A DNA stretch of 60,976 bases, filler included, from Dirinaria sp. TL-2023a (lineage: Eukaryota), in NCBI GenBank assembly GCA_051941275.1. It is 7 parts of 7 records of this genome, joined end to end, with 100 filler letters (N's around TTAATTAATTAA, not from the genome) between each part and the next. Parts side by side here need not be neighbours in the genome. Positions count along the whole stretch, not along the records: positions 52,369 to 60,976 come from JAVEBF010001162.1; 6 more parts are not named here. The stretch is one strand, 5' to 3'. The notes under the pieces were generated by a model, which saw only the letters and a list, made by a program, of their open reading frames with translations, was not told where the DNA came from and ran no database searches. The position numbers were made by a program, and so were the translations under genes. Below are positions 37,692 through 60,271 of the stretch, piece by piece (within the stretch, counting starts at the first letter, position 1; each line of letters opens with the position of its first letter).

Positions 37692-38570
37692 GATGAGAAC
37701 ACCAAGTCGCTGGAGATCTGTTGATAACGATGGAAATGAACGTGTCTTGGCTCAGTCTTTTTCTTTTCTTCACTGGGACCCTCGAGTCAAATACATCATG
37801 GCTCGTTTTGGACTTCCCTTTTCTTGTTATCGACGCTCTCTGGAGTAGGATTCTTAAATCTTTGTCGTAGAAAGTGAAACCAGTCTGAGGCTGTGGAAGA
37901 TATTGGTGCTACTCAAACGTGTATATATGCCACGTTCGAGATATATGTGTATAGATTCTCGAATGATATTGGCCTGAGATGACTCAATGATTTGGATTAT
38001 ACAACCAGCAGGGAAGTAGAGTTTAGGGATCATGGGTGAGCGACCACTAGGTCATTGCGTGGATTGAACCTTTGATCTACTAAGGGACGTATTAGCAATT
38101 CAATCCAGCACGAGACAGTAGTATGTAAATGGTACACGTAATCAGAACTCCTTTGATCTTCATCGTCATTAAACCTTAGAACCGGCTTAACAAGCGTCAA
38201 GAAAACCCTATTGAAACCCTAAGAAACAAACAATCCCCGTTATCTCCTCTCGTCCTGTCCCATCAAATCGACACGGGAATCGGAGTTTGATTTTGACGCT
38301 GATCTCGGGTATCTCGCCGCGACTCTCTGTTTAGATGGTGTGGGATCTGCACCAACGCAGTATGCGTCGGAAGAATCGTCCTCCGAATCCGCGTACGATA
38401 CTTACTTTCACTATTAATGTCGCTAAAAATATTCGACATGTTGCCGTCATCGCGGTTTTTGGCCCTTGGTCGCAATGTCTTGGCGGCCTACTCTCTGTTG
38501 ACGCTTTCTTTGACGAACTCTTTTAAGCTGGCCTTTGCTTCTCTGCGCTGCTTTTTCAAGATTTTGGACA

Positions 38571-41500
38571 ATGGCTGATGCTCAATCAAGGCCACAACGG
38601 CCACATGTCGACGATATGCCCGGCATGTGGCCCTCAACCTCAGCAAATAGCTTTAGGCAGCAATATTTAGCTCCAGTTGATCAATCGCAGGCCCAGAATG
38701 GCCATTCACCAGGCGAAGAAAGCACACATGTGAGCACCTCAAGGGATCTCTCTACGGACGCGGCTGCTACAAACTCTACTCCAGCAATGGAGGAGACTAG
38801 TCGCATGTCTAGTGAGAAGACCCAGGTCCCTACGCCTTCTGGTTCACCGGCCGTTGCAGGCGCCTTGGACGGCGCCAACGCTGGGGAGCCGGAAGAAAAG
38901 GATGAGACTGCGACACCGCCAGAGCCAGCGACAGAGGCGCCTTCAGAGGACGAGGACGACCTGGAAAAGGGGGGTTTTGCTCCAATTAAGTCTGGCCCGG
39001 CGAAAAGCAAACCAAAGCGACCGGGGTTGACTTCGGAGACTTCGCGCCGCATGACTGGAGAGGACCTCTTTCAAGCATTGAGCCGTAGGCGGACAAACGA
39101 GAGTGGCCGACAAGCTTCGTACATCTCGCCACAAGTTACTCATACAGAGCAAGAGCTGGTTGAGATTGAAAGGCTGCTTTCTCGGATGTTTGGAAAAGAT
39201 AGACATGAGCATTCGGAAGAGGAGAAAACACGGCATGTGGGGTTAGTTTTCAAAGATCTCACAGTCAGAGGTCTGGGTCTTGGCGCTGCACTTCAGCCTA
39301 CCCTCGGTGACTTCTTTCTCAATGGACCAAGAGCTCTAGCAGGCCTATTCGGCAGAGGGAGTACAATGTCCCACAAGCCGCCCATTCGGACGATCATCAA
39401 CAAGTTTACGGGTTGTGTCCGCCCAGGAGAGATGTTGCTCGTTTTGGGGAGACCAGGATCGGGATGCTCCACGTTCCTTAAGGTACTGGCAAATCAAAGA
39501 TTCGGTTATGAAAGCGTGGATGGAGACGTGACTTATGGTGGCACCGACGCCAAATCAATGGCCAAGCACTACCGTGGCGAGGTCGTGTATAATCCCGAGG
39601 ATGATCTTCACTATGCCACGCTCAGTGTCAAAAATACTTTCGATTTCGCACTGAAAACCCGAACACCGGGTAAAGCTTCTCGGAACGAAGGTGAAAGCAG
39701 AGCAGACTACCGCCGGGAATTTCGAAAGATCGTTGCCAAGCTTTTTTGGATTGAGCACACATTAGGGACCAAGGTCGGCGATGAGTTCGTAAGAGGCGTT
39801 TCTGGAGGTGAGAAGAAACGTGTCAGCATTGCCGAAGCAATGATCACCAAGGCTAGTATACAATGTTGGGATAATTCGACAAGGGGTCTCGACGCTAGTA
39901 CCGCTTTGGAGTACGTTCAGTCTTTGAGGTCTCTCACAAACATGGCGCATATCTCCACTTCAGTGGCTCTCTATCAAGCTGGAGAGTCACTTTACGACCT
40001 TTTCGATAAGGTAATCCTTATTGATGAAGGAAAATGCCTTTATTTTGGACCTACTGAGGATGCTGCCGCCTATTTCGAAGAGCTCGGGTTCTCAAGGCCG
40101 GCACGATGGACCACGGCCGATTTCCTTACATCCGTCAGCGACGAGCATGAACGAGAGGTTAAAGATGGCTATGAAACTCGGATACCTAGATCTGCTGATC
40201 AATTTGAGGAGGCTTATCGCAATAGTGAAATGTACAAAGCCAATCAGAAGGACATTGAAGAGTTCGAAGCCGGACTTGAAACCCAGAGGAAAGAACGCCT
40301 GGAGGCTCGGACAAAAGCCACGAAAGAGAAAAATTATACACTCCCATTTCATAAGCAGGTCGTGGCTTGTACACATCGACAATTCCTCATCATGCTGGGA
40401 GACAAGCAGTCATTAGCGGGAAAATGGGGCGGCGTTCTTTTCCAATCCTTGATCGTCGGCTCCCTATTTTACAACCTGCCCAGGAATTCAAGTGGTGTCT
40501 TCGCCCGCGGGGGTGTACTCTTCTTCATGCTACTATTTAACGCTTTGCTTGCACTTGCTGAATTGACCGCTGCATTTGCTAGTCGGCCGATCATGCTGAA
40601 ACACAAAAGCTTCTCCTTTCACAGACCGGCAGCGTACGCCATTGCGCAAACGGTTGTTGACGCACCACTAGTGCTAGTACAGGTCTTCATATTCGATGTT
40701 GTCGTCTATTGGATGGCAGGACTGTCCAGAACTGCGTCACAGTTTTTTATTAGCCTGCTGATACTTTGGATAATTACCATGAATATGTACGCATTCTTCC
40801 GGATGGTAGGATCGATGACGAAGTCCTTGGATATAGCAACCCGTATCACTGGTCTCTCAGTTCAAATTCTTGTCGTCTATACTGGCTATCTAATCCCTCC
40901 AGCAAAAATGCACCCGTGGTTCAAATGGCTTATCTGGATTAATCCAGTACAGTACGGCTTCGAAGCATTAGTATCAAACGAATTCTACAACTTCGACATC
41001 CCATGTGTGGCTCCCGCTCTGGTACCCCAAGGTCCAGGAGCAAGTCCACAATACCAGTCCTGCACGCTGCAAGGGTCACAGCCGGGTCAAACTTTTGTTA
41101 CCGGCTCTCGTTATATTAAGACCGCGTTTACTTACGAAAGGGCGCATCTGTGGCGCAATTTTGGCATCATTGCTGGCATGTGGATGTTTTTCGTCTTCCT
41201 GACCATGCTGGGCATGGAAATGCAGAAGCCGAATGCTGGTGGCGGGGCCATCACAATATTTAAGCGGGGCCAGGCTCCAAAGTCTGTAGCCCAAGCGATG
41301 GAGAAAGGCAGCATCCCAGAAGACGAGGAGAAGGCCGGCGCGGTCGTAGCAGAAAAGATTGCCGAACAAGAATCAAGTGAATCTGAATCCGAGCAACCTG
41401 TTAAAGGTGTAGCAAAGAACGAGTCGGTCTTTACTTACCAGAATGTGAATTACACAATACCGTACGAGAATGGCGAGCGAAAGCTATTGAACGACGTCCA

Positions 41501-43388
41501 GGGCTATGTGCGGCCAGGAAAATTGACCGCGCTGATGGGAGCGAGCGGGGCTGGCAAGACGACGCTGTTGAACACACTAGCGCAACGTATCAACTTTGGC
41601 GTGGTAAGCGGTGACTTTCTTGTGGACGGTCGACCATTGCCCAAATCATTCCAAAGAGCCACTGGATTTGCGGAGCAGATGGATGTGCATGAGCCAACCG
41701 CCACTGTTCGAGAAGCCCTCCGATTTTCGGCTCTCCTACGTCAGCCAAGGGAAGTACCTATTGAAGAAAAATATGAGTATTGTGAAAGGATTATTGATTT
41801 GCTTGAGATGAGGAGCATTGCTGGCGCGACTATTGGGAAGATCGGCGAAGGCCTCAACCAGGAACAGCGAAAGCGAGTCACGATCGGTGTGGAGCTTGCC
41901 AGCAAACCTGAGCTTTTGCTATTCCTGGATGAGCCTACGTCTGGTCTTGATTCCGGCGCTGCTTTCAACATTGTCCGGTTTCTTCGTAAGCTCGCCGATA
42001 GTGGCCAAGCTCTGCTTGTCACTATCCACCAGCCTTCAGCTGTTCTCTTTGAGTATTTTGACGAACTGCTCCTTCTCAAATCCGGAGGTCGGGTAGTCTA
42101 CCATGGATCGCTTGGCAAAGACTCTCGTGAACTTATCAGCTACTTCGAAAGAAACGGAGCAAAACAATGCCCGCCTAATGCCAACCCAGCAGAATACATG
42201 CTAGAAGCTATTGGAGCTGGGAATCCCGACTACAAGGGCAAAGACTGGGGAGATGTTTGGGCGTCTTCCCCAGAACATGAGCAGCGTGGCCAGGAAATCC
42301 AGTCAATGATCAGTGAACGCCGCGGCGCCGCCTCAAGCGCAACAAACGACGATCGTGAATATGCGATGCCGCTAAGCACACAAGTTTTCTCCGTTATCAA
42401 GCGCGATTTCACCTCTTACTGGCGAACTCCTGAGTATGTGGTTGGAAAAATGTTCCTCCACATTCTCACCGGCCTTTTTAACACGTTCACGTTTTACCAC
42501 ATGGGCGACTCCACCATCGATCAACAATCCAGGCTGTTCTCTATCTTCATGACCCTTACTATCTCGCCACCGCTCATGCAGCAGCTGCAGCCCAAGTTCC
42601 TACAGTTTCGCCAGATCTTTCAGCAACGAGAGGCGAGATCAAAGATCTACTCGTGGTTCGCATTCGTCACTGGTGCAGTGATTGTGGAAATCCCATACTC
42701 GATCCTGGCAGGTACAATTTATTTCCAATGCTGGTGGTGGGGTGCCCTCGGACGGTATCGAACGCCTTTCGACAGCGGTTATACCTGGATGCTTTTGATG
42801 ATGTTTGAACTGTTCTATGTCAGCTTCGGTCAAGCTGTGGCATCTTTTGCACCCAACGAGCTGCTAGCCAGTCTACTCTTGCCAGTCTTCTTTTTATTCA
42901 TTGTCTCGTTCTGCGGTGTGGTGGTACCAGCTCGGGGCCTGCCATATTTCTGGCGCTCTTGGATGTACTGGCTCACACCGTTCCACTATTTACTCGAAGG
43001 ATTCCTCGGTGTTGCTACTCATGGCCGTAAAGTCACATGCGCCTCGAACGAATTTGCGAGATTCTCACCTCCGCCGGGCCAGACATGCCAACAATATGCT
43101 GGTCCTTACATCTCCCAAGCAGGCGGCTATGTTCAAGATGGCGCCAATGGTTTGTGCGAATTCTGCCAATATGCGACCGGAGATGAATTTGCTGCTGGCT
43201 TCAGCGTATACTACTCCCATAAATGGAACGACTACGGCTATTTCTGGGCCTTCACGCTCTTCAATTTCTTTGTCGTTTTCGTCGCTTCATGGCTGTATCT
43301 GGGCGGACTGAAGCGCATTCGCGATACATTTAGTCCCAAAGCGAGAAAGCAAAAGAAAGAAGCACTGAAGCTGAATGAGAAGGCATGA
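38571..43388 (+). CDS. Full-size PDR/ABCG multidrug transporter, intronless
   Basis: NBD1: GRPGSGCST, VSGGEKKRVSIAE, CWDNSTRGLD. NBD2: GASGAGKTT, LNQEQRKRVTIGVEL, FLDEPTSGLD. Each is followed by a transmembrane domain. The first ATG is at 38571. Confidence 0.98.
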   Translation: MADAQSRPQRPHVDDMPGMWPSTSANSFRQQYLAPVDQSQAQNGHSPGEESTHVSTSRDLSTDAAATNSTPAMEETSRMSSEKTQVPTPSGSPAVAGALDGANAGEPEEKDETATPPEPATEAPSEDEDDLEKGGFAPIKSGPAKSKPKRPGLTSETSRRMTGEDLFQALSRRRTNESGRQASYISPQVTHTEQELVEIERLLSRMFGKDRHEHSEEEKTRHVGLVFKDLTVRGLGLGAALQPTLGDFFLNGPRALAGLFGRGSTMSHKPPIRTIINKFTGCVRPGEMLLVLGRPGSGCSTFLKVLANQRFGYESVDGDVTYGGTDAKSMAKHYRGEVVYNPEDDLHYATLSVKNTFDFALKTRTPGKASRNEGESRADYRREFRKIVAKLFWIEHTLGTKVGDEFVRGVSGGEKKRVSIAEAMITKASIQCWDNSTRGLDASTALEYVQSLRSLTNMAHISTSVALYQAGESLYDLFDKVILIDEGKCLYFGPTEDAAAYFEELGFSRPARWTTADFLTSVSDEHEREVKDGYETRIPRSADQFEEAYRNSEMYKANQKDIEEFEAGLETQRKERLEARTKATKEKNYTLPFHKQVVACTHRQFLIMLGDKQSLAGKWGGVLFQSLIVGSLFYNLPRNSSGVFARGGVLFFMLLFNALLALAELTAAFASRPIMLKHKSFSFHRPAAYAIAQTVVDAPLVLVQVFIFDVVVYWMAGLSRTASQFFISLLILWIITMNMYAFFRMVGSMTKSLDIATRITGLSVQILVVYTGYLIPPAKMHPWFKWLIWINPVQYGFEALVSNEFYNFDIPCVAPALVPQGPGASPQYQSCTLQGSQPGQTFVTGSRYIKTAFTYERAHLWRNFGIIAGMWMFFVFLTMLGMEMQKPNAGGGAITIFKRGQAPKSVAQAMEKGSIPEDEEKAGAVVAEKIAEQESSESESEQPVKGVAKNESVFTYQNVNYTIPYENGERKLLNDVQGYVRPGKLTALMGASGAGKTTLLNTLAQRINFGVVSGDFLVDGRPLPKSFQRATGFAEQMDVHEPTATVREALRFSALLRQPREVPIEEKYEYCERIIDLLEMRSIAGATIGKIGEGLNQEQRKRVTIGVELASKPELLLFLDEPTSGLDSGAAFNIVRFLRKLADSGQALLVTIHQPSAVLFEYFDELLLLKSGGRVVYHGSLGKDSRELISYFERNGAKQCPPNANPAEYMLEAIGAGNPDYKGKDWGDVWASSPEHEQRGQEIQSMISERRGAASSATNDDREYAMPLSTQVFSVIKRDFTSYWRTPEYVVGKMFLHILTGLFNTFTFYHMGDSTIDQQSRLFSIFMTLTISPPLMQQLQPKFLQFRQIFQQREARSKIYSWFAFVTGAVIVEIPYSILAGTIYFQCWWWGALGRYRTPFDSGYTWMLLMMFELFYVSFGQAVASFAPNELLASLLLPVFFLFIVSFCGVVVPARGLPYFWRSWMYWLTPFHYLLEGFLGVATHGRKVTCASNEFARFSPPPGQTCQQYAGPYISQAGGYVQDGANGLCEFCQYATGDEFAAGFSVYYSHKWNDYGYFWAFTLFNFFVVFVASWLYLGGLKRIRDTFSPKARKQKKEALKLNEKA

Positions 43389-43555
43389 AATGAATGAGAG
43401 AGCTTTCACTGGTGAGGATTTGGCCGATCTAGAAGCAGGAATCCGAGTGGCCAGGATACCGCACCGACATCCAGTCTCAGGTTTGTGTCCAGACTTATCG
43501 TACTAGCCGTCAAGTAAACGCTCGGAATTCGAGTATTTTGCATAGTAATCAGCTA

Positions 43556-43655
43556 NNNNNNNNNNNNNNNNNNNNNNNNNNNNNNNNNNNNNNNNNNNNT
43601 TAATTAATTAANNNNNNNNNNNNNNNNNNNNNNNNNNNNNNNNNNNNNNNNNNNN
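43556..43655. other. Artificial contig linker
   Basis: N44-TTAATTAATTAA-N44. Confidence 0.99.
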
Positions 43656-43945
43656 GGGGGAAGGAGGGGGAGAGCGTATTTAAAGTATCTAATGTAATGT
43701 GGTGTGATCTGATGTGGTTTGAGCTGTGGAGGGGGGGAAGGAAATATCATGGGATCAATGAAAACAACGGCACAAAAAAAAGAAAAGAAAGAAAGAAAAA
43801 AGAGGTAATTTCCTCAGTCTAGCTAGAGTTCGCAGCAATAAAATAGTACATACAAAGCATCATCATATGAAGCCAAACCCGAAAGCTTTCGTGTTACCAT
43901 ACTCCTTGCTATCCCTTTCCCCTATTCCCTTCTCGTCCCTAGCCT

Positions 43946-46334
43946 TTACTTGCACTCCTCGAACACGACTCGAACCCCTTTGACCATGCCCAGGGTGAAA
44001 CAATCAACACTCCCCTCCAACAAGCCGCTCCCATCTTCCCCTTCAGCGAGCCGGATATCGAACCTCGAAACCAGCATCGCAATCACGGCGCGCATTTCCA
44101 TGAGCGCGAGGTTGCGGCCTATACATCCGAAGGGGCCTGTATCTTCGTTAATCGATAGACAAGTATATTGTAGCAGGGGCTTCCAAAGCAAACGGATACC
44201 TACCGAGAGAAAAGGGCGCGAAGGCGTTCTGTGATTTTACGAGATCGGGTTGCGAGGACCATCGCTCGGGGATGAAGTCGTCTGGGTTGATGTAGTGCTT
44301 GGATGCTGTACTAAATTAGATTATGCGAGATTCTCAGGGGTAAGGAATCAAGTGAGTATTTGGAGAAAGGGCGAGGGAAAAGACTGACAATGGCTGATGG
44401 CGTAGTTGGGTACCGCGACATTCACGCCTCCTGGTACATAAACCCCATCGACAGTTATGCCCTCGGACGGCGTGACTCTCTGCACTCCGGATGGAACGGC
44501 AGGATGCATCCTTAACGCCTCATTGATGACGCCATTGAGGTACTCTGCATTCTGGAAGTGGCGGACGTTGAACGGCTCACCAGCTGGCCAGATGGTTTTG
44601 ATCTCGCTTCTCAATTTTTGCAGATGCGAGGGGTTGGCAGCGAGATGGTAGAAGGCATGTGTGAGCGTCACAGCAACGGTGTCGCTACCTGCGACGACTA
44701 TCAGTCGCGAATCCCCGTGTAACCATCGCACTGCTTCTGCCGGGTTGTCTGCTTTCTCCAGATCGGCTAGAAGCCAAGACGTGATATCTGGGATTTCGGG
44801 CCGGAGTAGTCTCCGCTTCTCGACCTGCTCCGTGCACCAGCTGATGAATTGCAGGAAGCCTTTTGCCAGACCGGGCTGTAGAATTCGAGGCAGTGCGGCA
44901 AGGACGGGAATGGTCCAGACGACAGGCGATAGCATACCAAGTGGCAGCATGCCCGAATGAAGCATTTTTATGACGTGGTGCTCCTGGCCGTGGACGAGCA
45001 TCTCGAAAGACTGGCCAAAAGCGAGATCACCCATCACGTCGAAGCCGTAGTAGAGGAACCAGTCCGAAGCATTGACCACCTGGCCAACCCGCTGGCGAAT
45101 TCCCGAGACCAGCTGTTCTGTATATTTGGTTATTCGGCTCTCGTAGTCACGGAGAGCTTATATAGAGCAACGTTAGAGAAAAATATCGTTGGTAGTTGCG
45201 GGAATGCCAAAGCCTACCCCTCATACTAAATCCACGATCCCATATTTTTCGGCGCGCTTCGTGGGTTGCTTCGTCTCTCGCGCTATGCAGCGATTCGAGA
45301 TTCTGATACACGACATAGTCATACCACGGTGATTTTAGACATGGCGATGCAGGTCCTAGTATGGTAGTTTGCGCATTTGGTGAGATGATTGACAGCTCGT
45401 TTGGGCCTAAAACGGGAGGTAATTATCAGATGAAGGAAAGGATGATGGTGCTAGCGAGAAACATGCGAAGACAGCCAACAATGAATGGTATTGATGGAAT
45501 CGGTGAGATGAGGATAAGGGAGACTATCAATTGCTGGAATGCAAGCGGGATTCATTTTCAAGGAAAGTAGTCTACTGTTCTAGGTTACCTCATGTCCTCC
45601 GTCAGAGATCTTGGACCTGAGTGCAGAGGTACTCGGTTTTCCAAGGCTTGGAATAGTTCAGATACCTTAGGTATACCTATGTCTTCGGTTCCTTGAACGG
45701 GAATAGTGAATGCAACACCCTGGGTCGGCCAAGCCTCCGGCCAAAATGCCCGATCTTTCCTACAAACCGCGCGAAGGTGGGATAAGGTAAGGCATATTAC
45801 ATATGTGAATCTGGACCCTTGGAAAAGGGGTGTTGGGTACCGCATCCGCCCATGAGAGAAGTGGCGTCAATTTGGCTTGCAGATTGGAAAATCGACAAGC
45901 TGATGCTGAATGCAACCGAAATGTGGCTTACCTATTCGAACAAAGTCGCCATACTGCTCATGCCATCTAGCGCGCACTTTGTGGTTGTCCATGCGGTAAC
46001 AGCATAGTGAGTGGTAGAATTTCGATACCTTGGCCAAGTGAGGTCCCGGGAATTGGCCGAGCCGGTGGAAGAAGACGCGGTAAATGACCATGCTGGTCCA
46101 TATGGCTGCGCAGTAAGAAGCGGTGATCGCCGCTGTCAACGTAGCGGCATCACCGAAAGTGAACCCTCCAAACTGGATTAAGCTGATCGTGGCGATCGGC
46201 GGGAGTAGGAAAAATAGCTTGAGAAGGAGCAAGGCTTGGGTGTGATGCTCGCCATGAATGAAGTAAAAGAGGTGAGATACCACACCAAGAATAATGGCCG
46301 CGATGGCGCATGGGGCCAGCATCGCATCGTCCAT
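43946..46334 (-). CDS. Cytochrome P450 monooxygenase, five exons
   Basis: N-terminal membrane anchor, [18 protein letters not shown]-helix AGSDT, EALR (ExxR), FIPERW, heme motif FSL|GPFGCIG. Confidence 0.96.
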
Positions 46335-46475
46335 GTCAGGCAAGAAGACAGTAGTAGTCTACGAGTAATGGCGCCGTTCGTAGTCCTCCAGTGATTTTGC
46401 AGCTGGCGGACAACGACCTGGACAGCTTACACGTGTAGATTGATAACACAAAATGGAATGTTGAAAATGTCACAG

Positions 46476-46524
46476 CTAGAGAGATGACCTAGAGAGATGA
46501 CCTAGATGTACGACCTAGAGAGAC
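46476..46524. repeat. 13-bp tandem repeat (CTAGAGAGATGAC, ~3.7 copies) just upstream of the P450
   Basis: Read directly; the third copy is diverged. Confidence 0.85.
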
Positions 46525-47353
46525 CGGATATACCCGCCGTGCTTTATGACTCGTACACCGACTCACCCATCATGTCGATAACCCCAAATGTGGTTGCACA
46601 AAGGACGGCGGGGGGTTTCCTGACAAGGGGTCGACCTTGACTAAAGTAGTGACTTGCTTTGACAGGACGGTAACGCGAAGGCTCGGCATTTAGCGCCAAT
46701 AGAAGATTGGACTTTATTAATGTGTATTTGGGCAAGTGGAATACATTAATTATTCCAATTCTCTGGTGGGGCGGCATTAGGCCATTAGCCATTCCCTCTC
46801 TCCCTTTAACCGGTACGAGATTAACCGGCACTAGCGGCGTCATATGCGGCTAAAGGCACCTTATGGCCCCGCTAATGGGAGCCTATCGTATATCAAAGCC
46901 AACCGGAATTCTTCATCTCATCGCTAATTCTTCAGGGGGAAGGATCGATAGGCTCGCAAGCGACATGAGACAAAATAAACAATCTAGGCCCGCTCGACGC
47001 TCGTGGTTTGGCACAATTTCAGGACACATTGGGCGAGGCTTGGCGCGTTTTAAAGTAGTGTCCGAATCTTTTTCCAGAACCGCGAGACCCGCAGGGGCAA
47101 AAGGGTAATAAAACCTTACCTTAAGGTACCTAGGAGTAAGCACGGCATGTTCTGGTTCCAGGAAAAATGCAGCCAAGATAACCAGAGATCTACTACTGGA
47201 TCTTATTATGCATATTCCAGTTCAGCAGAGCCGTGGGATCGGAGTCGGGCCATAAGGCGTCCCGCCGAAGATCCACGGGAAACAATCGTCGATCCCCCCA
47301 ATTCGTGGTGGAAAATCCCACCCGTGGTGGATCATCCGTACTTGGCTGGTGAG

Positions 47354-47387
47354 GCGAGATGAGCGAAATGAGCGAGATGAGCGAGAT
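47354..47387. repeat. 9-bp tandem repeat (GAGCGAGAT, ~4 copies) in the divergent intergenic region
   Basis: Read directly. Confidence 0.85.
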
Positions 47388-48255
47388 ATCGTGTTGGACT
47401 GTCGTGGGATGATGTGTACAACTGGGCGTACGGCAGGTGGCCAGTGGCTAAGCGACGTCACGTTGCAGTGACGATACTGCGAGAGGGGGCCCAAGGGGGG
47501 GTTTCTTCTTTCTGTTCTTCCTGCACGGTTCGCAATAGAGTCAACCCAGCATGCTGGAAAACAGCCGGACCTGCGCGTGGGGGCTTGGGAGCCCTGGTCA
47601 ACCCTGGTCAGTTACTGGTAACCAACGTCGTCGAGTCGGATAAGCTGGCACGGAGCCCACTGATTCGGTCTCTGGAATTCCGGCTGCAGGTCATTGCATT
47701 GCACGCGCAGGTCGTGCCACGTCAATTAGTCCCGCTCCCACGTCCGAGGCTTGCGGTTTCAGGCAATGCATACCAATCGATCCTAATTGACGAGCTAAGG
47801 AACTAGCTCCGGGAGATCACTCGCATTGTATTTTCTGCACACATTCCTACTCCGCCACGCTGGTTTATCCTTTGCGGGCATGGCTTCGGTGGGGCTGGGA
47901 GCGTGGAAAATTGTTCGATCACGTTGGCGCGGCAAACAAGGTAAGGTCAGGCAAGGTAGGGAGAGAGCTAAGGCGAAGAGAGATACGACCTGACACCATC
48001 CCGGTCGTTGCAATGCGATTCTTCCTTACATGTGCAAAATGTGCTGAAGCGAAGCGAGGCAAGATCGGGAGAGGGCCGGTGCTATAAAGCATTCCTGTCT
48101 CTCTGACCCATTAATATTCAATTGACACGAATCTGTTAATTCTCCTGTGTGTGTGATCCAAGTACAACACAGTCCCACCAAAATTTCCGTGTGATTTGAT
48201 TAGGGTCGAATTGGACGTGACTGCCTTCTTGTACCCACGCCGCCGCAGTGCTACC

Positions 48256-49398
48256 ATGAATTCCTTATCCATTGTAGACCCATCCGAGAAATTGGTCAGT
48301 TTGCAGAACAGCATTGGCCTACCCAAGATGCACGAGACAGATCCCGTGCCCGAGAAGCCTGCACTCGTACCGGAAACCCCGGAACAGAACAAAGTAAGGC
48401 ACAGCTTTCCTTGCTCGTGACACTCGTACACAAAGAAATCGGAGCAGAGCATGGGAATAAGGTAGACGGCCTATACTGACTGTATGGTTACACAGGCTCC
48501 AGCCGACGTGCCGACATCGTATCATCTTCAGACCATCTGGCTCTTTACACGCAACGATCTTAAGTCAATCGTGTTCCCAGAAACCGCCTTTGGCATATTC
48601 AGTGCTCTCTCGGGTCCAGTGCTCACCGCAAACGCGTCTCCTCACCTCTTGTCAACCCTAGGCCGGCTACCGCTGGTTCTTGTGTGGTGCTGGATCAACG
48701 TCCTCATCTTCGACGTCGCCAATCAAAGGCTCTCAACATCGGTCATTGAGGATTCCGTCAACAAGCCATGGCGTCCTCTACCATCCGGACGTCTGTCACT
48801 TTCTCAAGCCAGGCGTTTCTTGCTCCTCATCCTGCCCATCGGATTCGTGGCTACAATGTACCTTGGCGGTCTAGAGGAGACCGTGGCTATGATGGTTCTG
48901 ACGTGGATGTACAACGATCTTGGCGGTGCTGACGAGAGCTACGTTGTGCGAAACCTGATCAACGCTTTTGGATTTGTCTGCTACAGCTCAGGGGCCACAC
49001 TGGTCGCCTGTGGTCGTGGGCGTTCCTCGTTTCTTCCTGTGACCTACGAATGGCTTGGCATCGTCGGCGGCATCGTCTTCACCACGCTGCAGATGCAAGA
49101 TATGGCAGACCAAGAAGGGGACCGAGCACGCAATAGAGGCACTGTACCACTAGTTCTGGGAGACTGGCCCGCTCGCTGGACAATCGCCATCCCGGTAGCA
49201 TGCTGGTCGTTGGTGTGTCCGGCATTCTGGCAGTTGAATATCTATGCCTACATCGTACCAGTGATCTGCGGCGGCACCGTTGCCTCCAGGATACTTCTTT
49301 TCCGCACTGTAAATTCTGACAAGATCACATGGAAGCTGTGGAATGTCTGGATCACATCCCTTTACCTACTACCGCTGGTCAAGTACCACGTCGCATAG
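48256..49398 (+). CDS. UbiA-superfamily membrane enzyme, probably a UbiA-type terpene cyclase (Fma-TC-like)
   Basis: TIWLFTRNDLK, FDVANQ..EDSVNKPWRPLPSGR, WMYNDLGG and QMQDMADQEGDRARNRGTVPL, with multiple transmembrane helices. Intron at 48394-48495. Confidence 0.9.
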
Positions 49399-52969: not shown

Positions 52970-55768
52970 TTATCCGCGGGCTAGGTGGATAACGAGTTTG
53001 TTCGTCAAGTCGAGATACGGTTGCGGACTCGTAACATCCTTATCCAAAACCCGATACCCGCTGCCCACGAGCTTCTTGTGCGAGAAATCGATCGCGTTGC
53101 CAACCTCCACGGCCGCTTCGTAGCCGGCGCATTTGAAGTCCACCAGGTAAGTCTCATGGTCCAGCTGATACAGTTGGACGTCCATGTAGACGAAGCATGC
53201 ATTGTCCGCGGCACTGCCGGCGATCTGGGCTCCCGCTGCCGAGGTGGCACTGACGCTTGTAGCCGAGCCAGCAGCAGAGGCCAGACTGCCAATGATGCTA
53301 CCACGGCGCCGCGCCGCTTCCTCCGAGTGGAGGTCGACATGACTGCTCTGAGCGGAGTGCGCGTGTACTGCTCCGGGCGGGTACATGCCATCTTTAAGCC
53401 AGCGGACATGAATGCACCAAGGGTCTTTCGGGATGTATGCTGGTGGAGGGATGTTGGGGTCGACGTCTTCATCTGCCGACGACTCGGCTTCATCATCGGC
53501 GCCGACATAGTAGACTCCTTGGCGCTGCTTGTCCTGTGGTTCTCTAAATGCATTACTATCCTGGCGCTCGACGTAGTGGGATTTCTTGTCTTTCTCGGGG
53601 CTTTCAGAGAGCTGTGATTCGGCGTAGTGAGTGGCGCCTATGACATGGACCGGGTATGGACCAGGACCCTCCTTGGCATCAGGCTTGGGAGGTGTGACGT
53701 GCCATTGTGCTCCGAGTGCTTTGAGCGCTTTGTAGATGCACATCATGGCGTCCAGGGGCTGATTGCGGCTTCGAATACCGAACTGCCATTTGGTGTGTCT
53801 ATTCTTCTTATTACTCGTCTGAGGATCAGCCCCAGGATTTTCCGAGGCTTTGGCGAGGATGGTATTCAAACGGACAGTAGAACGAGAATGAGGATTAAGC
53901 CGACGGAGACCGGATTCATGCTCATTGGGATCCAGTGACAATTTGGAAAAGTAAGCCTGTTCATTCGCCTCCATAGGCTCCCCTTCATCCTGCATCTTGA
54001 AACGAACCTCCTGCTTCTTCTTCTCTTCCTCCTTCTTCGCCTTCATGATCATGTTGTGGTAGTAAGGAAGACTGCTCGTAAGGATCCCGACTTTGCTAAC
54101 GTACCCATCTGACTGTGGTATACTTGACAGGGGTCTCGAATTTGTTTGAGGATGATGTGCCTCGCCAGCTAGATTTTGTGAGTCGGCTTGTGCCTGCTCC
54201 TGCTTCTGAGCCTCATGGGTGGCAGAGAGATCTTCAACGTGAGCTTGAGCTGCTTCGCCGAGCCGGGACGCTTTGATCTGAGGCGTTGGGGGCATCTTAG
54301 GATCCCATGGCGGTGGAGAGGTAGCAAGAAACGGTTGTACATTATTGGCCGTCGTAAGTTTCGCTGTTCATGCTAGTCAGTATTGGATTGGAAAATGTGG
54401 TCACGTGAGGGCATTCGCTGTGGCCTAAGCGCGCTCGCAGCATGCAAACAGGAATCCACTCCTCTGATCATGCGACTGCGCGAACTGAAGCAGAGTAAGG
54501 GAGACTTACGATTATCCTGCATGATCTGATTCTCACGAACGATCATATATGCGTCTTTAATAGCGTTGGGCTCATCTTTCCTCAGCGCGTCTTGGACATC
54601 GTCCTTGGCGTAGCCCATGGTCTTGCCCAATTTACCAATCACAGATTCATGGATTTGTTCTTGAACTGCGGGAGGCTTGCCAGGAGCGAGCTTGCGTGGG
54701 TCTATCGCCTTATTTGGATCGACACCAGTGTCAATGAATTCCTCCACAGGTTGCTTAAGGTAGTCCTCTAGATCTTCGTTGAACCATGGGTCTTGACGAA
54801 TCTCTTGAATAGTAAGCCGCTGCACGGGATTGACCTTGAGCATCTTGTGGATGATGTGCCGAGCGCCTGAGGATAAATAGTTTGGCGTATGATAGTTGCC
54901 GGCATTGATTTTCTTGAACAGGGCGGGTATAAATTCATCGTCAAACGGAAGCCGGCCGACAAGCAGCACGTACAGGATGACCCCGCAACTCCACACGTCT
55001 ACCTCAGGCCCAGCATATAACTTCCCAGAAATAACTTCTGGGGCTGCATAATTAGGACTGCCGCAGCTGGTCTTCAGGAAGTTGCCATCTGTCATGATGT
55101 TGCTTAGGCCAAAGTCGGCAATCTTGACATTAAGATCGCTATCAAGTAGCAAATTCTCCGGCTTCAAGTCTCTGTGCACGATTTTGTGGCGGTGACAGTA
55201 TTCAACCGCGCTCACGATCTGCTGGAAGAAGCGCCGAGCTTTGGCTTCGGGCATTTTTCCATGTTTCACGAGATAGTCGAACAGCTCGTTTCCTGCATAT
55301 TCGAGGACCATAATAATTTCTTGGGGCGTAGTGATGACTGTATAGCTACGTATAAACCACTTAGTATGAAATTCCGTCCGCAGCTGTTACAGGGGCTAAG
55401 ACTTACAGCTTGATAATGTGAGGGTGTCGAAGAAGTTGCAGATACTGTATCTCTCTTTCGACTCTCCCAGCCATGTCTCGAGATATGAGCTTCTTTCGAG
55501 ATATGATTTTTAAAGCCACCTCTTGTCCGCTGACGCGGTGCACCGCAAGCTTGACTTTCCCAAATGAACCCTCTCCAAGGGTCTTCTTGAGGGCATACTG
55601 GCCGATGCGTGGCCCTGCACGTCCGCCACTGGGAAGGTCACTGGTAGTGCTGTCCGAGCGGTGCGATGTATCTTTGGATGGCTTGGTCGGTCCCGGCCGC
55701 TGAGGGCGCTTGTCGGCCGAGCTGGACAAGGACATGGACAGCTCTTCATCGTCGAAACCGGAGGTCAT
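52970..55768 (-). CDS. SNF1: SNF1/AMPK catalytic subunit, three exons
   Basis: LGEGSFGKVKLA, REIQYLQLLRHPHIIKL, HRDLKPEN, DFGLSNIMTDGNFLKTSCGSPNYAAPEVISGKLYAGPEVD, UBA region, KWQFGIRS, QLYQ..YLVDFK. Confidence 0.99.
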
Positions 55769-57304
55769 GATGATTTGCGAGGGTCAGCGTCGTTTATGTA
55801 AGGACGGAGAGGGCTATCCTGCAGAGGTGTTAGTAAGCCGCCTCCTTTCGAATTTCTTGCTGATTCCCACGGCGGGATCTTCCAGTGTAAGACATACGCA
55901 TGGGCTTGAAGCCGCGCCGACATTACCACTTCTGTGCGGTTTGCGGTCTTCTCCGCGCCAGGTTGAAGCCCGATGAGCTAATCCTGGGAGTGTGTAGGTA
56001 CGCTATGCAATCTTAGAGTTTGACAGATGATGCAGGTAAAATCGAAAGGTTAAAAACGGGTAATTGAGTTCGTTGACAGGACCAGGGTCAGAACGCAATC
56101 GAAAGTGAGTCCTTAAGGGGGTCTATGCGGAGCTGCAGGTGTTGTACAGCAAGTCTGCTGTGGGCGTACCTAAGGTTTTGGAAGATTCCAGGAAGATCCA
56201 CACTAGAGAGTGAGAGATAAGATAAGATACGATACTGTTTGATGTAAGGTCAGGTACGAGTACAGTACTTACCTTAGGCTTCGGACACTTATGCTGAAAC
56301 TTCACCACTTCGAATGGGTGAGGCCGCAAGACGGAAAGTGTTTGAAGGTGCCAAAGGTAAAATAAGATGTGAAGGCTTGAGATGACTGTGGGTCTTCCAA
56401 ACCCAACCAGCGGTTCCTCCCGCCTGCTCCGCCGAACCGCCGGGAGGGCAAGAGCTCGTCAAGTATCCGCCAAGCCTTCTCTATCTTACCATTCTCATTC
56501 GGCTTTTCCATGATTACAATGTTGGATTGCAGTTGTGTCCTGCTGAAACCACCCTCAGGTATCGTCACTGGACACAGTATCTCTCGAGGTAGTGGAATCC
56601 AGCACAAAAGAAATTAGTCAACAAGCTCTGCAAGCTTGGGATAGTTTGCACCGCTATTCTCTCCACCCTAACCGGTGTGGAAATGAACGCAAATGTTTCC
56701 GGAATTCCAGTAGGAGAAGACAGCATTCCCCTTCTGGATCCTCCAACACGCACCCGGCCTTAAATTGGATTTTTGCTCATGGACACCACGCTGGAGAGTT
56801 ATTTTGCAACCTTGGGACTCCATAATGAAAAAATCTAACAAGATACAGGCTCTTTCTGATGATCCGTTTGTTCGATTTACCACTGTAAGGTTGAAGAGGA
56901 TCTAGGAAAATCATGGGGGAATTCGAAGGACCATTGTTCATTCTGTAGTCTCCTAGTACCGTCTGTCTCGAAGCATGAATATGCTTTGCTATAAACGATT
57001 CCTTACTGCATCATCATGTCTCAGGATGATATGTAGACCTTCTAGAATGTTTCATTGACGATGTATCTTTGACTTTGGATCAACCGATCCCTTCACTGTA
57101 AATCATCTCCTTCAATTCATATCACAATTGCCCCGCCGTGGCCAAGCAATGATCTCTGGCCATGCCAGTTTACTCAAAACGTGCTCGGTCTCAGCAGAGC
57201 TAAAGGGAAGCCATTGCACCTTTGAAAACTATCAGGCTTTAGCGTCAGCATTATTCAGACCTTGTTCCAGACATGTTTCAGAAGGCAGCATAAAAAAATA
57301 TGTC

Positions 57305-57402
57305 AGCCTCGAGAAGGATTCGAACCCTCGTCTTCAGTGGGTCCAGAGTCCACTGACTCTGGTCCCAAGCCCTGATGCGTTCCACCGCTACGCCACCGAG
57401 GC
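57305..57402 (-). tRNA. tRNA-like Pol III gene, copy 1 (98 nt); anticodon arm extended by a long hairpin; identity undetermined (TTG or TGG depending on register)
   Basis: Acceptor GCCTCGG/TCGAGGC, D arm GCGT-AGCGGTGGA-ACGC, T arm GAGGG-TTCGAAT-CCTTC. A box TGGCGTAGCGG and B box GGTTCGAATCC. T7 terminator just downstream. Confidence 0.8.
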
Positions 57403-57595
57403 TTGATTCATGAAGTTAGACATGCTAAAATCGACTATATTCATTACTTACATATTAAAGTAGAGGCCACTGCGTCGATAGCTAATCTTCTTCTGCGTTA
57501 ACATGATTTATCTCATTATTATTACGAGCATTACTCTGATCTTGTTCTAGACATGTTTCGATAGGCAGCACAAACCCAAAAAAAAAAAAAAATTC

Positions 57596-57746
57596 TGCCT
57601 CGAGAAGGATTCGAACCTTCGATCTTCAGATGACCCCTGCTCCTAGGAGCGATCACCCACCGCCGTAGCGGGGAAATCGTCTCGAGATTGGAGTTACCCC
57701 CAACCTCGATTGGTCCTAACGCGTTAAACCACTACGCCACCGAGGC
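57596..57746 (-). ncRNA. tRNA-like Pol III gene, copy 2 (151 nt); multibranched ~80-nt insert in place of a normal anticodon loop
   Basis: Same acceptor stem. D arm GCGT-AGTGGTTTA-ACGC, stem TTAGG/TCTGA, V loop AGATC, T arm GAAGG-TTCGAAT-CCTTC, discriminator A, T15 terminator. No YU-anticodon-R loop can be drawn. Confidence 0.8.
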
Positions 57747-57920
57747 TTTGATGAAGAGACTCGTCCTAAAAAAAATCATATCCATTACACGCATAACATC
57801 GTAGGGATTCAATGTGCTCTACATTTGCTTCAATATGGTTTACACCGCTACCATTGTGAGCATTGTTACTCTGCTCTCCTTCTAGATACTAATTTTGCGA
57901 AGCAATCAAAGCTAAAAGTC

Positions 57921-58023
57921 CGCCCAGGGAAGGATCTGAACCTTCGTCTTCAGGGATTGAAGTCAGCACTGAGGTGCTGCTTGCTCTCGCGACTGTACGT
58001 TAGACCAAATACGGGACTGTGTT
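57921..58023 (-). pseudogene. Degenerate third copy of the tRNA-like gene
   Basis: The 3' half is retained (CCTGA-AGAC-GAAGG-TTCAGAT-CCTTC-CCTGGGC). The A box and 5' acceptor strand are decayed. It carries its own insert hairpin CAGCAC-CTCA-GTGCTG. Confidence 0.65.
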
Positions 58024-59357
58024 CATGGCATGAGTTGTGCTTAAAATGGACCATAACTATACTTCGTTGCATACATATTCCAGCATGTAGGGAAATAGAA
58101 GAGGCACATCTTTAAGGGCAGCGGCAGAGCTGCACTCTTCGATGACGGTTATACGGAATGTTTTGTACGTCTATCATTCTAAACGATCCAAAGGTGTTGT
58201 ACGAGATCTTGGAACTTCTGATCATCGCTTTAGCTATGATAATCGTGAACATGTAAATCATGGATATGGGTAAGAGGAGGAGGAGGAGGAGGAGGAGAAG
58301 AAGGGGCACAAGCCCCAAATTTTTTAATAGAAAGGATCGAAGTCTTGCCTGCAACAAGTTCCACTGTCTATTTGATCCAGCTAGCTTACGCCAAGCGCAT
58401 TCACAATAAGATGCTACAGAGAAGCACAAAGAGCCTCAATGGCCCCTATTCGACGGTCCAGCCACTGGGCGACCTGCGCTTCGAGTGGAACACGAAGCCT
58501 CTCATCTGAAATCTCATGTCATGATCCTATCAACACGGTCACTGCTCTGCTAGTTGACAGATCTATGGAAATTGCCATCCAGTACTAGTTCCTCGGTTCA
58601 ATTGCAGAAACACCATTCCTTCATCCAAGGGATGCAGACTTGGAGGTAGCTCCCCTGTCCAAGAGCATTATGTAGCAGCTCTAATAGCATGATGCGAATC
58701 GCAGATCGTAGCTCGTGCTTGCAAACAGCAGTCGTTACCTTAAGCATTCAGGACTAGCTAGACCTCGGACTTGCCGCAAGATCAAGAGCTTTGGCGCTAA
58801 GATATTAAGCGAAAACCCTACCTTAATTTCGCGTATCCTAAGGTTTTTCATCAACGCTTCTAATCCAATTGAGCATGCTGTGTGAGGAGATCTAATTCGC
58901 CGATGCTTCAACTTCGCTCGATCTATAGTAAACACCGAGAAACACGTTTGTCTAATATATCAAGTCACGCGATGAAGAAGGACAATTGACTTGATCGTAT
59001 CCTTTCTTGCCGTGTGCCGCGCCTTCGCCATCTAGCTGAGGGACACTTAGGCAGGGCTGGACAAGTGTATTCGACATGACGCTTTTGCTCCATTATAGAC
59101 AAGACGGCTCGTCGCGATGGTCACTTTTTATAGAAATGGCGGGCAGATTCAGCCGCGAGATCTGGTACACAGCCTTGATGCCAATAATGGCCGCGATACA
59201 AAGAAAGTGTGTATTCCTCTCCATCTCATTTCCGTTCATCCATTGCTCTTCCTATATCTCGCTCTTTACAAGCGTTTCCTCTCGAATCGCTGCTATCAAT
59301 CCCATTTTTTTCCCCCGAGAACGCTCGCCTCCAGATAACTTCACTTTTCAAAAAACC

Positions 59358-60271
59358 ATGACAGTTACCTACCGCAACGGGATCTCAATCCTCGAGCTTC
59401 TCATATATGGACCTGGCCTGCCACTGGCGAACTTCATTGCCTATCGCCACGGCTTTCAATGGACAGGGGGCTGGCTGTTCCTGATCTTCTTCTCCATCAT
59501 GCGCATCGTCGGCGCCAGCTCTCAGCTCGCGCTCATGGGAGGGTTCAATCTGCGAGTAGAAGAAACATACGTTGTATGCAGCCAAGTGGCTCCGTCTTTT
59601 TTAATCAGCGCCAGTATCGGTCTTACGGGTCGAGCGTAAGTAGGCCTTTCCTCTTCTCATAATGCATAATCAACAGAGAAAAAGTCCTTCAAGACGTCGA
59701 GGGCGTGGTATTGTTCTTTTATGAAACAAAAAACAGAAACAATAACAAACTAAAAAATCATCAAAACAGGAACCAAAAAACCCGAACCCCTCTCTCATCC
59801 CTTCTTTTCCGCGGGGTAGGCCTCATCAATCTATCGGGCGTGGTTCTCGGCATAGTCGGGGGCGCGATTCAATCGTCCTCATCATCCATCACGACCGTCC
59901 AGCCCGAAACCAAAGCCGGGGTCCTCATCTTCCTCGCTTCCCGGGCTGGCACTTGCGCTCTTCTCATACTCACACTACTCAACACATTCCGCCATGGTCT
60001 GGGCGAGAGGAAATTACTCTATGCAGTCGCGTTCGCGGCGCCATTCATACTCGTCCGGTTGGTGTATAGCATTCTAGGCTCTTTTCGGGGCCGGAGGTGG
60101 AGTATTGCTACGGGAAGCGTGACGGTGTTCTTGGTCATGGCGGTGCTGGAGGAGATTATAGTAATAGTAGTACTCCTAGGGACCGGGTTGGCACTGATGA
60201 GGAAGGATAACAACAGCACGCAGGATGACGGCAGCAACCGCGATGTTGGACTGGCAAACTTGAGAGCATAA
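59358..60271 (+). CDS. Fungal integral membrane protein (~7 TM) of unknown function, two exons
   Basis: MTVTYRNGISILELLIYGP..RHGF..GWLFLIFFSIMRIVGA; intron ~59636-59769; then GERKLLYAVAFAAPFILVRLVYSIL..MAVLEE. Confidence 0.85.

Follow-up and report, generated by a model that had tools for sequence, protein, structure and literature searches.

In engineered tRNA scaffolds an inserted RNA replaces the anticodon loop, and tRNA-like RNAs transcribed by RNA polymerase III (Pol III) are further analogues of this arrangement. tRNA genes of undetermined specificity also exist and provide another class for comparison. A further class is formed by the intron-bearing nuclear tRNAs of eukaryotes, for example fungal tRNA-Pro(UGG), which are handled by the Sen/TSEN endonuclease. 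The passages on substrate recognition in PMC10485636 and PMC6614914 place the intron of these tRNAs at position 37/38 and describe a ruler that is taken from the tRNA body. According to the same passages (PMC6614914, PMC10485636), the TSEN substrate has a proximal (A-I) base pair formed from position 32, the bulge at the junction of intron and 3' exon is invariably 3 nt, and the 5' cut lies six nucleotides from the base of the proximal pair. As described in PMC6614914, fungi ligate tRNA exons by healing-and-sealing, have no RtcB and degrade the linear intron; a stable circular intron is therefore not expected in them.

We analysed a stretch of 60,976 nt, filler included, from Dirinaria sp. TL-2023a (assembly GCA_051941275.1), referred to here as the 61-kb window. 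It contains a 151-nt tRNA-like gene, copy 2, which is the middle one of three units of roughly 340 bp each in a tandem array (Table 1). Copy 2 aligns with the complete Rfam tRNA model (positions 1-71 of RF00005; gathering threshold 29 bits, E = 1.2e-7). Its acceptor stem (7 bp), D stem (4 bp) and T arm (5 bp with the loop UUCGAAU) are all intact, as are both the A and the B promoter boxes. There is no run of four or more U within the gene, and the T15 tract that follows it would be expected to terminate Pol III. The anomaly is in the anticodon arm. In the RF00005 alignment, 86 nt stand between the two halves of the anticodon stem where the consensus has 9, which puts the size of the insert at 77 nt. 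The insert has a GC content of 0.60, compared with 0.45 across the surrounding 2.4 kb. Copy 2 was not found by cmscan at default filters, permissive filters being needed, and it was not called by ARAGORN at default settings. Standard tRNA finders either overlook this gene or give it the wrong name. From the evidence presented below, copy 2 is probably either a tRNA-like RNA that does not decode or a decaying tRNA copy.

Table 1. Features of the copy 2 locus, with positions counted along the 61-kb window.
Feature	Position	Strand	Basis or remark
Copy 2, tRNA-like gene, 151 nt	57596..57746	-	Rfam RF00005, 44.9 bits
T15 tract, Pol III terminator-like	57578..57592	-	Read directly, three bases past the discriminator
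Anticodon-stem remnant, 5' strand UUAG (4 bp)	57716..57719	-	Rfam alignment, cloverleaf-constrained fold
Anticodon-stem remnant, 3' strand CUGA	57626..57629	-	Rfam alignment, constrained fold
AU bulge between anticodon-stem remnant and closing helix	57630-57631	-	2 nt, 3' strand
Closing helix, 5' strand GACC, continuous with anticodon-stem remnant	57712..57715	-	MFE of isolated insert; constrained fold
Closing helix, 3' strand GGUC	57632..57635	-	MFE of isolated insert; constrained fold
Hairpin 1, GUAA (GNRA) loop on a 12-bp stem that includes two G-U pairs	57682..57709	-	MFE fold
Hairpin 2, c(UACG)g loop on an 11-bp stem with two G-U pairs and two bulges of a single U	57651..57678	-	
Hairpin 3, 4 bp, CUAG loop	57639..57650	-	MFE fold
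Copy 3, paralogue with short hairpin intron	57305..57402	-	Rfam tRNA, 45.8 bits
Copy 1, 3' half only (variable region and T arm)	57914..57953	-	blastn 80%, alignment
SNF1-like kinase gene, UBA and adenylate-sensor domains	52970-55768	minus	One border of the ~3.3-kb gap
DUF7702/RTA1-like gene	59076-60271	plus	Other border of the ~3.3-kb gap

The other two units of the array indicate where copy 2 came from. Copy 3 fits the class of intron-bearing nuclear tRNAs. The 5' side of its anticodon loop is CUUGGG, which is Pro UGG-like, and ARAGORN, when introns are permitted, reports it as tRNA-Pro(tgg). Enumeration of excisions from copy 3 gave the loop CUUGGGC with four of the five stem pairs, and the splicing rules can be followed with C32 and a G at -3, a 3-nt bulge and CUUGGG ahead of the cut. 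Its intron is a perfect 8-bp inverted repeat hairpin. Copy 3 is itself not fully canonical: its best canonical reading needs a two-nucleotide spacer from the D stem to the anticodon stem as well as one G.A mismatch, and the other option is a variable region of 14 nt. Copy 1 matches the 3' parts of both copies 2 and 3 by blastn; its T loop is changed, its acceptor strand is different and its terminator tract is only T4. A 5' half for it about 500 nt upstream, with six of seven positions complementary to the acceptor strand, was considered and rejected as within chance, and blastn detected no 5'-exon similarity there. Since copy 1 is reduced to a 3' fragment, the array appears to be decaying. 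The discriminator bases differ across all three copies.

Copies 2 and 3 share 57 of 64 positions in their exon parts; in the flanks, where these can be aligned, they share 124 of 161 (p = 0.027, one-sided Fisher test), the flank divergence being about 23%. Only 2 of 42 stem nucleotides differ between them, for which the binomial p is 0.0016 if the flank rate is taken, and pairing survives in each case (C-G to U-G and A-U to G-U). This is indirect evidence that the gene has been constrained. For the lineage of copy 2 alone, taken at half the flank rate, two or fewer changes in 42 stem positions have a p of ~0.12 by hand calculation, which is not significant. The constraint could therefore lie mostly on copy 3, and the comparison of exons with flanks does not prove constraint on copy 2 itself. 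Relative to copy 3, the anticodon arm of copy 2 is seven nucleotides short; two alignments explain this with equal parsimony, and in them either the loop or the 5' stem strand is gone. At its two junctions the insert looks like the base of the copy 3 intron hairpin (GGACC on the 5' side and GG(A/U)C on the 3' side), and for this reason the insert probably grew out of an older intron hairpin. In the explanation favoured below, copy 2 descends from a tRNA-Pro(UGG)-type paralogue, with copy 3 as its closest relative.

We examined whether removal of the insert could restore a decoding tRNA. Thirty-two excision schemes were enumerated (two connector lengths by two variable-loop lengths by eight split points), and each was inspected for a single contiguous excision that leaves a 5-bp anticodon stem and a 7-nt loop with U33 and a purine at position 37. 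None of the 32 schemes gave U33 with purine 37. The excision defined by the ruler would leave a product with the loop ACCAAUA. When forced, ARAGORN called copy 2 as Asp (atc) with a 58-nt intron, a call that has C33 and a non-canonical intron position. A class-II-like reading with an inner anticodon stem, also from ARAGORN, was rejected, as it has C33 and needs an unstructured variable region of 23 nt; this inner-stem solution is retained only as an alternative pairing of copy 2.

The comparison with described splicing substrates leads in the same direction. Like intron-bearing nuclear tRNAs, copy 2 has A and B boxes, an oligo-T tract and a complete cloverleaf body, with further sequence interposed in the anticodon arm. 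Unlike them, it has no 7-nt loop with U33 and purine 37 after excision, and its 77-nt insert is multi-branched, in contrast to the short hairpin that serves as the intron of copy 3. Against the TSEN rules, the bulge beside the 3' exon in the copy 2 fold is 2 nt (AU) and not 3 nt, position 32 is an A and, in the canonical register, does not form a proximal pair of the C-G type, and six nucleotides from position 32 the 5' cut would be buried within the 12-bp stem of hairpin 1 in the predicted fold. As modelled, copy 2 does not look like a substrate for eukaryotic TSEN, nor does it read as a decoding tRNA gene with one intron. Since none of the excisions works and the splice-site geometry is absent, the insert is not a canonical tRNA intron. 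An earlier note on this DNA had argued that it was not a neutral intron, which is right in the stronger sense that it is no canonical tRNA intron at all. The model of copy 2 resembles the archaeal bulge-helix-bulge introns and their relaxed bulge-helix-loop forms only loosely. What they have in common is the helix of 4 bp, in copy 2 GACC/GGUC, on either side of which bases are left unpaired, on one strand and then on the other; however, the archaeal motif needs two 3-nt bulges where the flanks here are both 2 nt, and the distal side in copy 2 is a four-way junction and not a helix. The host, moreover, is a fungus, whose enzyme is described in the recognition passage of PMC10485636 as using the tRNA body and a ruler.

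The structure of the insert was then assessed by folding. The earlier note had proposed a multibranch fold for 57631-57716 of the minus strand, with a closing helix and three hairpins, and every helix and loop was found where it had been placed. The minimum free energy (MFE) structure of the 86-nt insert span is exactly this fold, with an energy of -43.6 kcal/mol and 32% of the ensemble. Dinucleotide shuffles had a mean of -29.2 kcal/mol, and none of 200 was as stable (z = -5.28); nor was any of 1000 in a second set (z = -4.31). As a genomic background we used 86-nt segments, half-overlapping on a 43-nt grid, from both strands (n = 2834). None of them reached -43.6 kcal/mol, the best being -39.0 kcal/mol. 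The reverse complement of the insert folds to only -29.6 kcal/mol, and 31 of 1000 shuffles were as stable as that. The difference of 14 kcal/mol in favour of the tRNA-sense strand agrees with the wobble positions in the fold, since all four are G-U on that strand. Two of 4000 shuffles had both a GNRA and a UNCG hairpin loop, as did 1 of the 2834 genomic segments, the grid of which takes in segments that overlap the insert. Both the strand asymmetry and the rarity of this loop combination back the argument that the G-U pairs point to symmetry at the level of RNA. The fold of the insert is real, sense-specific and statistically exceptional.

In the context of the whole 151-nt transcript, folding with the cloverleaf enforced gave -64.9 kcal/mol, compared with -66.6 kcal/mol without constraint. 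The closing helix had been described as stacking on the anticodon stem; in the cloverleaf-enforced fold the 5' strand indeed runs straight from the stem remnant into GACC/GGUC (57715-57712 paired with 57635-57632), with a 2-nt AU bulge between the two helices on the 3' strand. The pair probabilities in the full-length ensemble were 0.91-1.00 for hairpin 1, 0.28-0.70 for hairpin 2 and 0.80-0.83 for hairpin 3, and only 0.15 for the closing helix. The 5' half of hairpin 3 can pair instead with the 5' strand of the anticodon stem, and the rival pairing of UAGGA on the 5' side with UCCUA inside hairpin 3 is 2.3 kcal/mol worse (-62.6 vs -64.9 kcal/mol). In these models the two tetraloop hairpins, 1 and 2, are robust, a solid prediction. 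The closing helix, hairpin 3 and the exact multibranch topology of the junction are less certain because of the ensemble probabilities and the close rival pairing. At the DNA level hairpin 3 is a perfect 12-nt palindrome. This palindrome and the inverted repeat of the copy 3 intron would fit a process that makes hairpins in the DNA at this site, at which they hint.

The insert on its own contains no described RNA family, whether rRNA, SRP, RNase P/MRP, snRNA, snoRNA, ribozyme or riboswitch, at E values up to 10, cmscan against Rfam 15 having given 0 matches for 57625-57720 on both strands. The 3-kb region around it gave tRNA plus matches at chance level only. Hammerhead, C/D-box and other motifs that had been sought by eye in the insert were dropped, as Rfam gave no match. 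Within the 61-kb window neither blastn nor a covariance model of the insert and its structure found a second copy; the model scored 114.7 bits on the insert itself, and its next match, at 17.4 bits, was the antisense of hairpin 1. No homologue was found in the metagenome, prokaryote-genome or viral collections that were scanned, the viral contigs giving 0 matches. The exact 21-nt strand comprising the T arm and the acceptor 3' strand was found in one metagenome contig (L001), which is unrelated, and this suggests that the strand does not belong to a widely conserved tRNA. A prokaryote match to 20 nt of hairpin 1 (L002) was also rejected, as its flanks do not continue the hairpin and about one such match is expected by chance, as estimated from the size of the collection. 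The exon strings of the gene had no match in a literature search, and no such gene was described among the search listings on fungal tRNA introns, pseudogenes and tRNA-like RNAs.

We favour, tentatively and at somewhat less than an even chance, the explanation that copy 2 encodes a Pol III tRNA-like RNA that cannot decode and that keeps the insert as a structured domain. With its internal A and B boxes and a T15 tract behind it, the gene would yield a defined transcript. The intact acceptor, D and T arms would permit processing by RNase P and RNase Z and addition of CCA, and would confer tRNA-like stability. We propose that the insert is retained unspliced because the determinants of the eukaryotic splicing endonuclease are absent. 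The tRNA body would then be a natural scaffold, displaying a compact and structured domain to a putative partner: the 77-nt insert stands in place of the anticodon loop, and the 86-nt span would extend the stem remnant into a 4-bp helix that carries three hairpins. The intact body, the lack of any U4 inside the gene and the T15 tract directly after it all support this explanation. The stability of the insert, its strand asymmetry and the classes of its tetraloops are hard to obtain by chance, which argues for RNA-level selection at some time. Evidence internal to the sequence suggests such selection on the fold, and we infer that it may have maintained the fold. The earlier note had reached a similar inference, that the insert is under selection as a folded domain and is not a neutral intron. 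This is partly supported. The energy comparison and the G-U argument agree with it, and the insert is indeed no ordinary intron; on the other side stand an array that is partly in decay and an insert that contains no Rfam family.

A non-decoding RNA of this kind can be compared with engineered tRNA scaffolds and tRNA-like RNAs, in which a tRNA body likewise carries a structured module instead of an anticodon loop, so that the processing and stability of a tRNA would benefit an RNA that does not decode. Copy 2 differs from these in being a single locus in a fungal nuclear genome. A more specific version of the explanation is possible yet doubtful, namely that copy 2 is a natural tRNA scaffold that arose from a duplicated tRNA-Pro, is matured like a tRNA and accumulates as a stable non-decoding RNA, with a selected four-way-junction domain, whose caps are GNRA and cUNCGg loops, in the place of its anticodon loop, a cloverleaf within a cloverleaf. 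Such a domain might, for instance, bind a protein or a second RNA as its ligand, or serve as a decoy for one of them. If the insert is indeed kept and selected, a nuclear eukaryotic tRNA gene would have turned into the carrier of a new structured RNA, and Pol III non-coding RNAs would be shown to have one of their origins in tandem tRNA duplicates.

Nearly as likely as the non-decoding RNA, with roughly one chance in three by our judgement, is that copy 2 is a pseudogene of the tRNA-Pro type in a decaying array. On this explanation the 7-nt deletion destroyed the anticodon arm and events at the DNA level, such as template switching or palindromic duplication, enlarged the intron hairpin; the stable fold would be a young by-product without function. 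Copy 2 indeed has no usable anticodon loop, and much of what counts against a non-decoding RNA falls into place here: the dead 3' fragment (copy 1) in the same array, the discriminators that differ among the copies, the DNA palindrome of hairpin 3 beside the perfect inverted repeat of the copy 3 intron, and the lack of significant constraint on the copy 2 lineage. The junctions of the insert, which are like the base of the copy 3 hairpin, also suggest growth from a pre-existing intron hairpin. The weak closing helix in the ensemble and the 21-nt strand that is not widely conserved likewise count against the non-decoding RNA. Decay without function, however, does not explain the occurrence of GNRA and cUNCGg loops together (the 2 in 4000 shuffles), nor why each of the four pairs that are not Watson-Crick is a G-U on the sense strand and the sense fold is favoured by 14 kcal/mol. 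At a flank divergence of ~23%, moreover, an old neutral insert should have lost its helices, and the body, boxes and T15 tract of copy 2 are all intact. Judged as a pseudogene, copy 2 has lost decoding and has intact stems, boxes and terminator tract. Like tRNA pseudogenes and genes of undetermined specificity, it has no readable anticodon and lies beside a functional-looking paralogue and a truncated copy. It is unlike pseudogenes in keeping the four body stems, both boxes and a long terminator, and in that the sequence which disrupts it has far more structure than expected by chance, with tetraloops of the RNA type. If copy 2 is merely a decaying paralogue, its importance lies mainly in annotation, and it would show that hairpin-rich sequence with 'functional-looking' tetraloops can arise in dying tRNA genes.

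It is unlikely that the insert is a genuine, atypical tRNA intron, cut at the bulges that flank GACC/GGUC as in a relaxed bulge-helix-bulge or bulge-helix-loop motif. A structured intron of ~77-80 nt would be released, which may persist in free form, and the tRNA would be left with an unusual anticodon loop. The predicted 4-bp helix, with an unpaired AA distal to it on the 5' strand and an unpaired AU proximal to it on the 3' strand, does mimic a bulge-helix-bulge, and the paralogue copy 3 fits the eukaryotic rules as given in the substrate passages of PMC6614914. However, both bulges are 2 nt and not 3, no excision scheme produced U33 with purine 37 and the ruler-defined loop falls short in the same way, and the 5' site lies inside a 12-bp stem with a pair probability of ~1.0. 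Persistence of the intron as a stable circle would also not be expected from the fungal pathway as described in PMC6614914, in which healing-and-sealing operates without RtcB and the linear intron is degraded.

Less likely still is that the insert is foreign or captured sequence that landed in the anticodon arm. It might be a piece of another structured RNA gene, a mobile element of small size, or the inner halves of two fused tandem tRNA units after decay (a 3' half, a terminator remnant and a 5' half). Its length (77-80 nt) is about that of one tRNA, a functional source would account for the high GC and the RNA-type tetraloops, and, when the exons of copy 2 are circularly permuted, a lenient local alignment of the insert to them stays colinear through positions 1-71, yet no Rfam family was found at E up to 10, no second copy was present in the 61-kb window by blastn or covariance model, and neither a target-site duplication nor a long terminal inverted repeat was seen at the junctions. 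The permuted alignment scored 12 against 7.9 ± 1.4, with 48 of 2000 dinucleotide shuffles as good; in the controls, 656 of 2000 were as good for the unpermuted exons and 779 of 2000 for the reverse complement. The match is weak, is lost with the exons of copy 3 (834 of 2000) and is not significant under stricter scoring, and the notion that the insert is a copy of the tRNA's own permuted halves may serve as a lead only. With regard to SINE or MITE criteria, the acceptor stem of copy 2 is complete, its junctions show no duplication and the 61-kb window holds no other copy.

Several further features of these sequences were recorded. The unrelated contig that contains the 21-nt strand was considered as a homologue and rejected, since it carries a repeated 'minihelix' element instead, with no Rfam match. 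The element occurs at 589-622 and 1086-1119 of that contig, with a diverged third occurrence near 1585-1618, in a tandem unit of ~497 bp. It consists of a 7-nt acceptor 5' strand followed directly by the T arm and the acceptor 3' strand, has no D or anticodon arm and is set among CTGT/GACT simple repeats.

Copy 2 is located in a gap of ~3.3 kb with no recognisable protein gene. In the array itself, a block of ~50 nt lies just 3' of each terminator (57527-57580 and 57247-57295 on the minus strand, and ~57830-57900 after copy 1). This block is conserved between units as well as the tRNA exons are, and the downstream flank is 84% identical in an ungapped alignment. Upstream of copy 1 there is a (CCT)n microsatellite at about 58275-58305 on the minus strand. 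Gene content elsewhere in the 61-kb window includes a PDR/CDR-type ABC transporter and a sugar transporter; together with the kinase and the DUF7702/RTA1-like gene, these point to fungal nuclear DNA. The open reading frames at 35439-49398 comprise an AMP-binding/PP-binding enzyme, the PDR/CDR ABC transporter of 1617 aa and a UbiA prenyltransferase, a set that resembles a secondary-metabolism or efflux neighbourhood.
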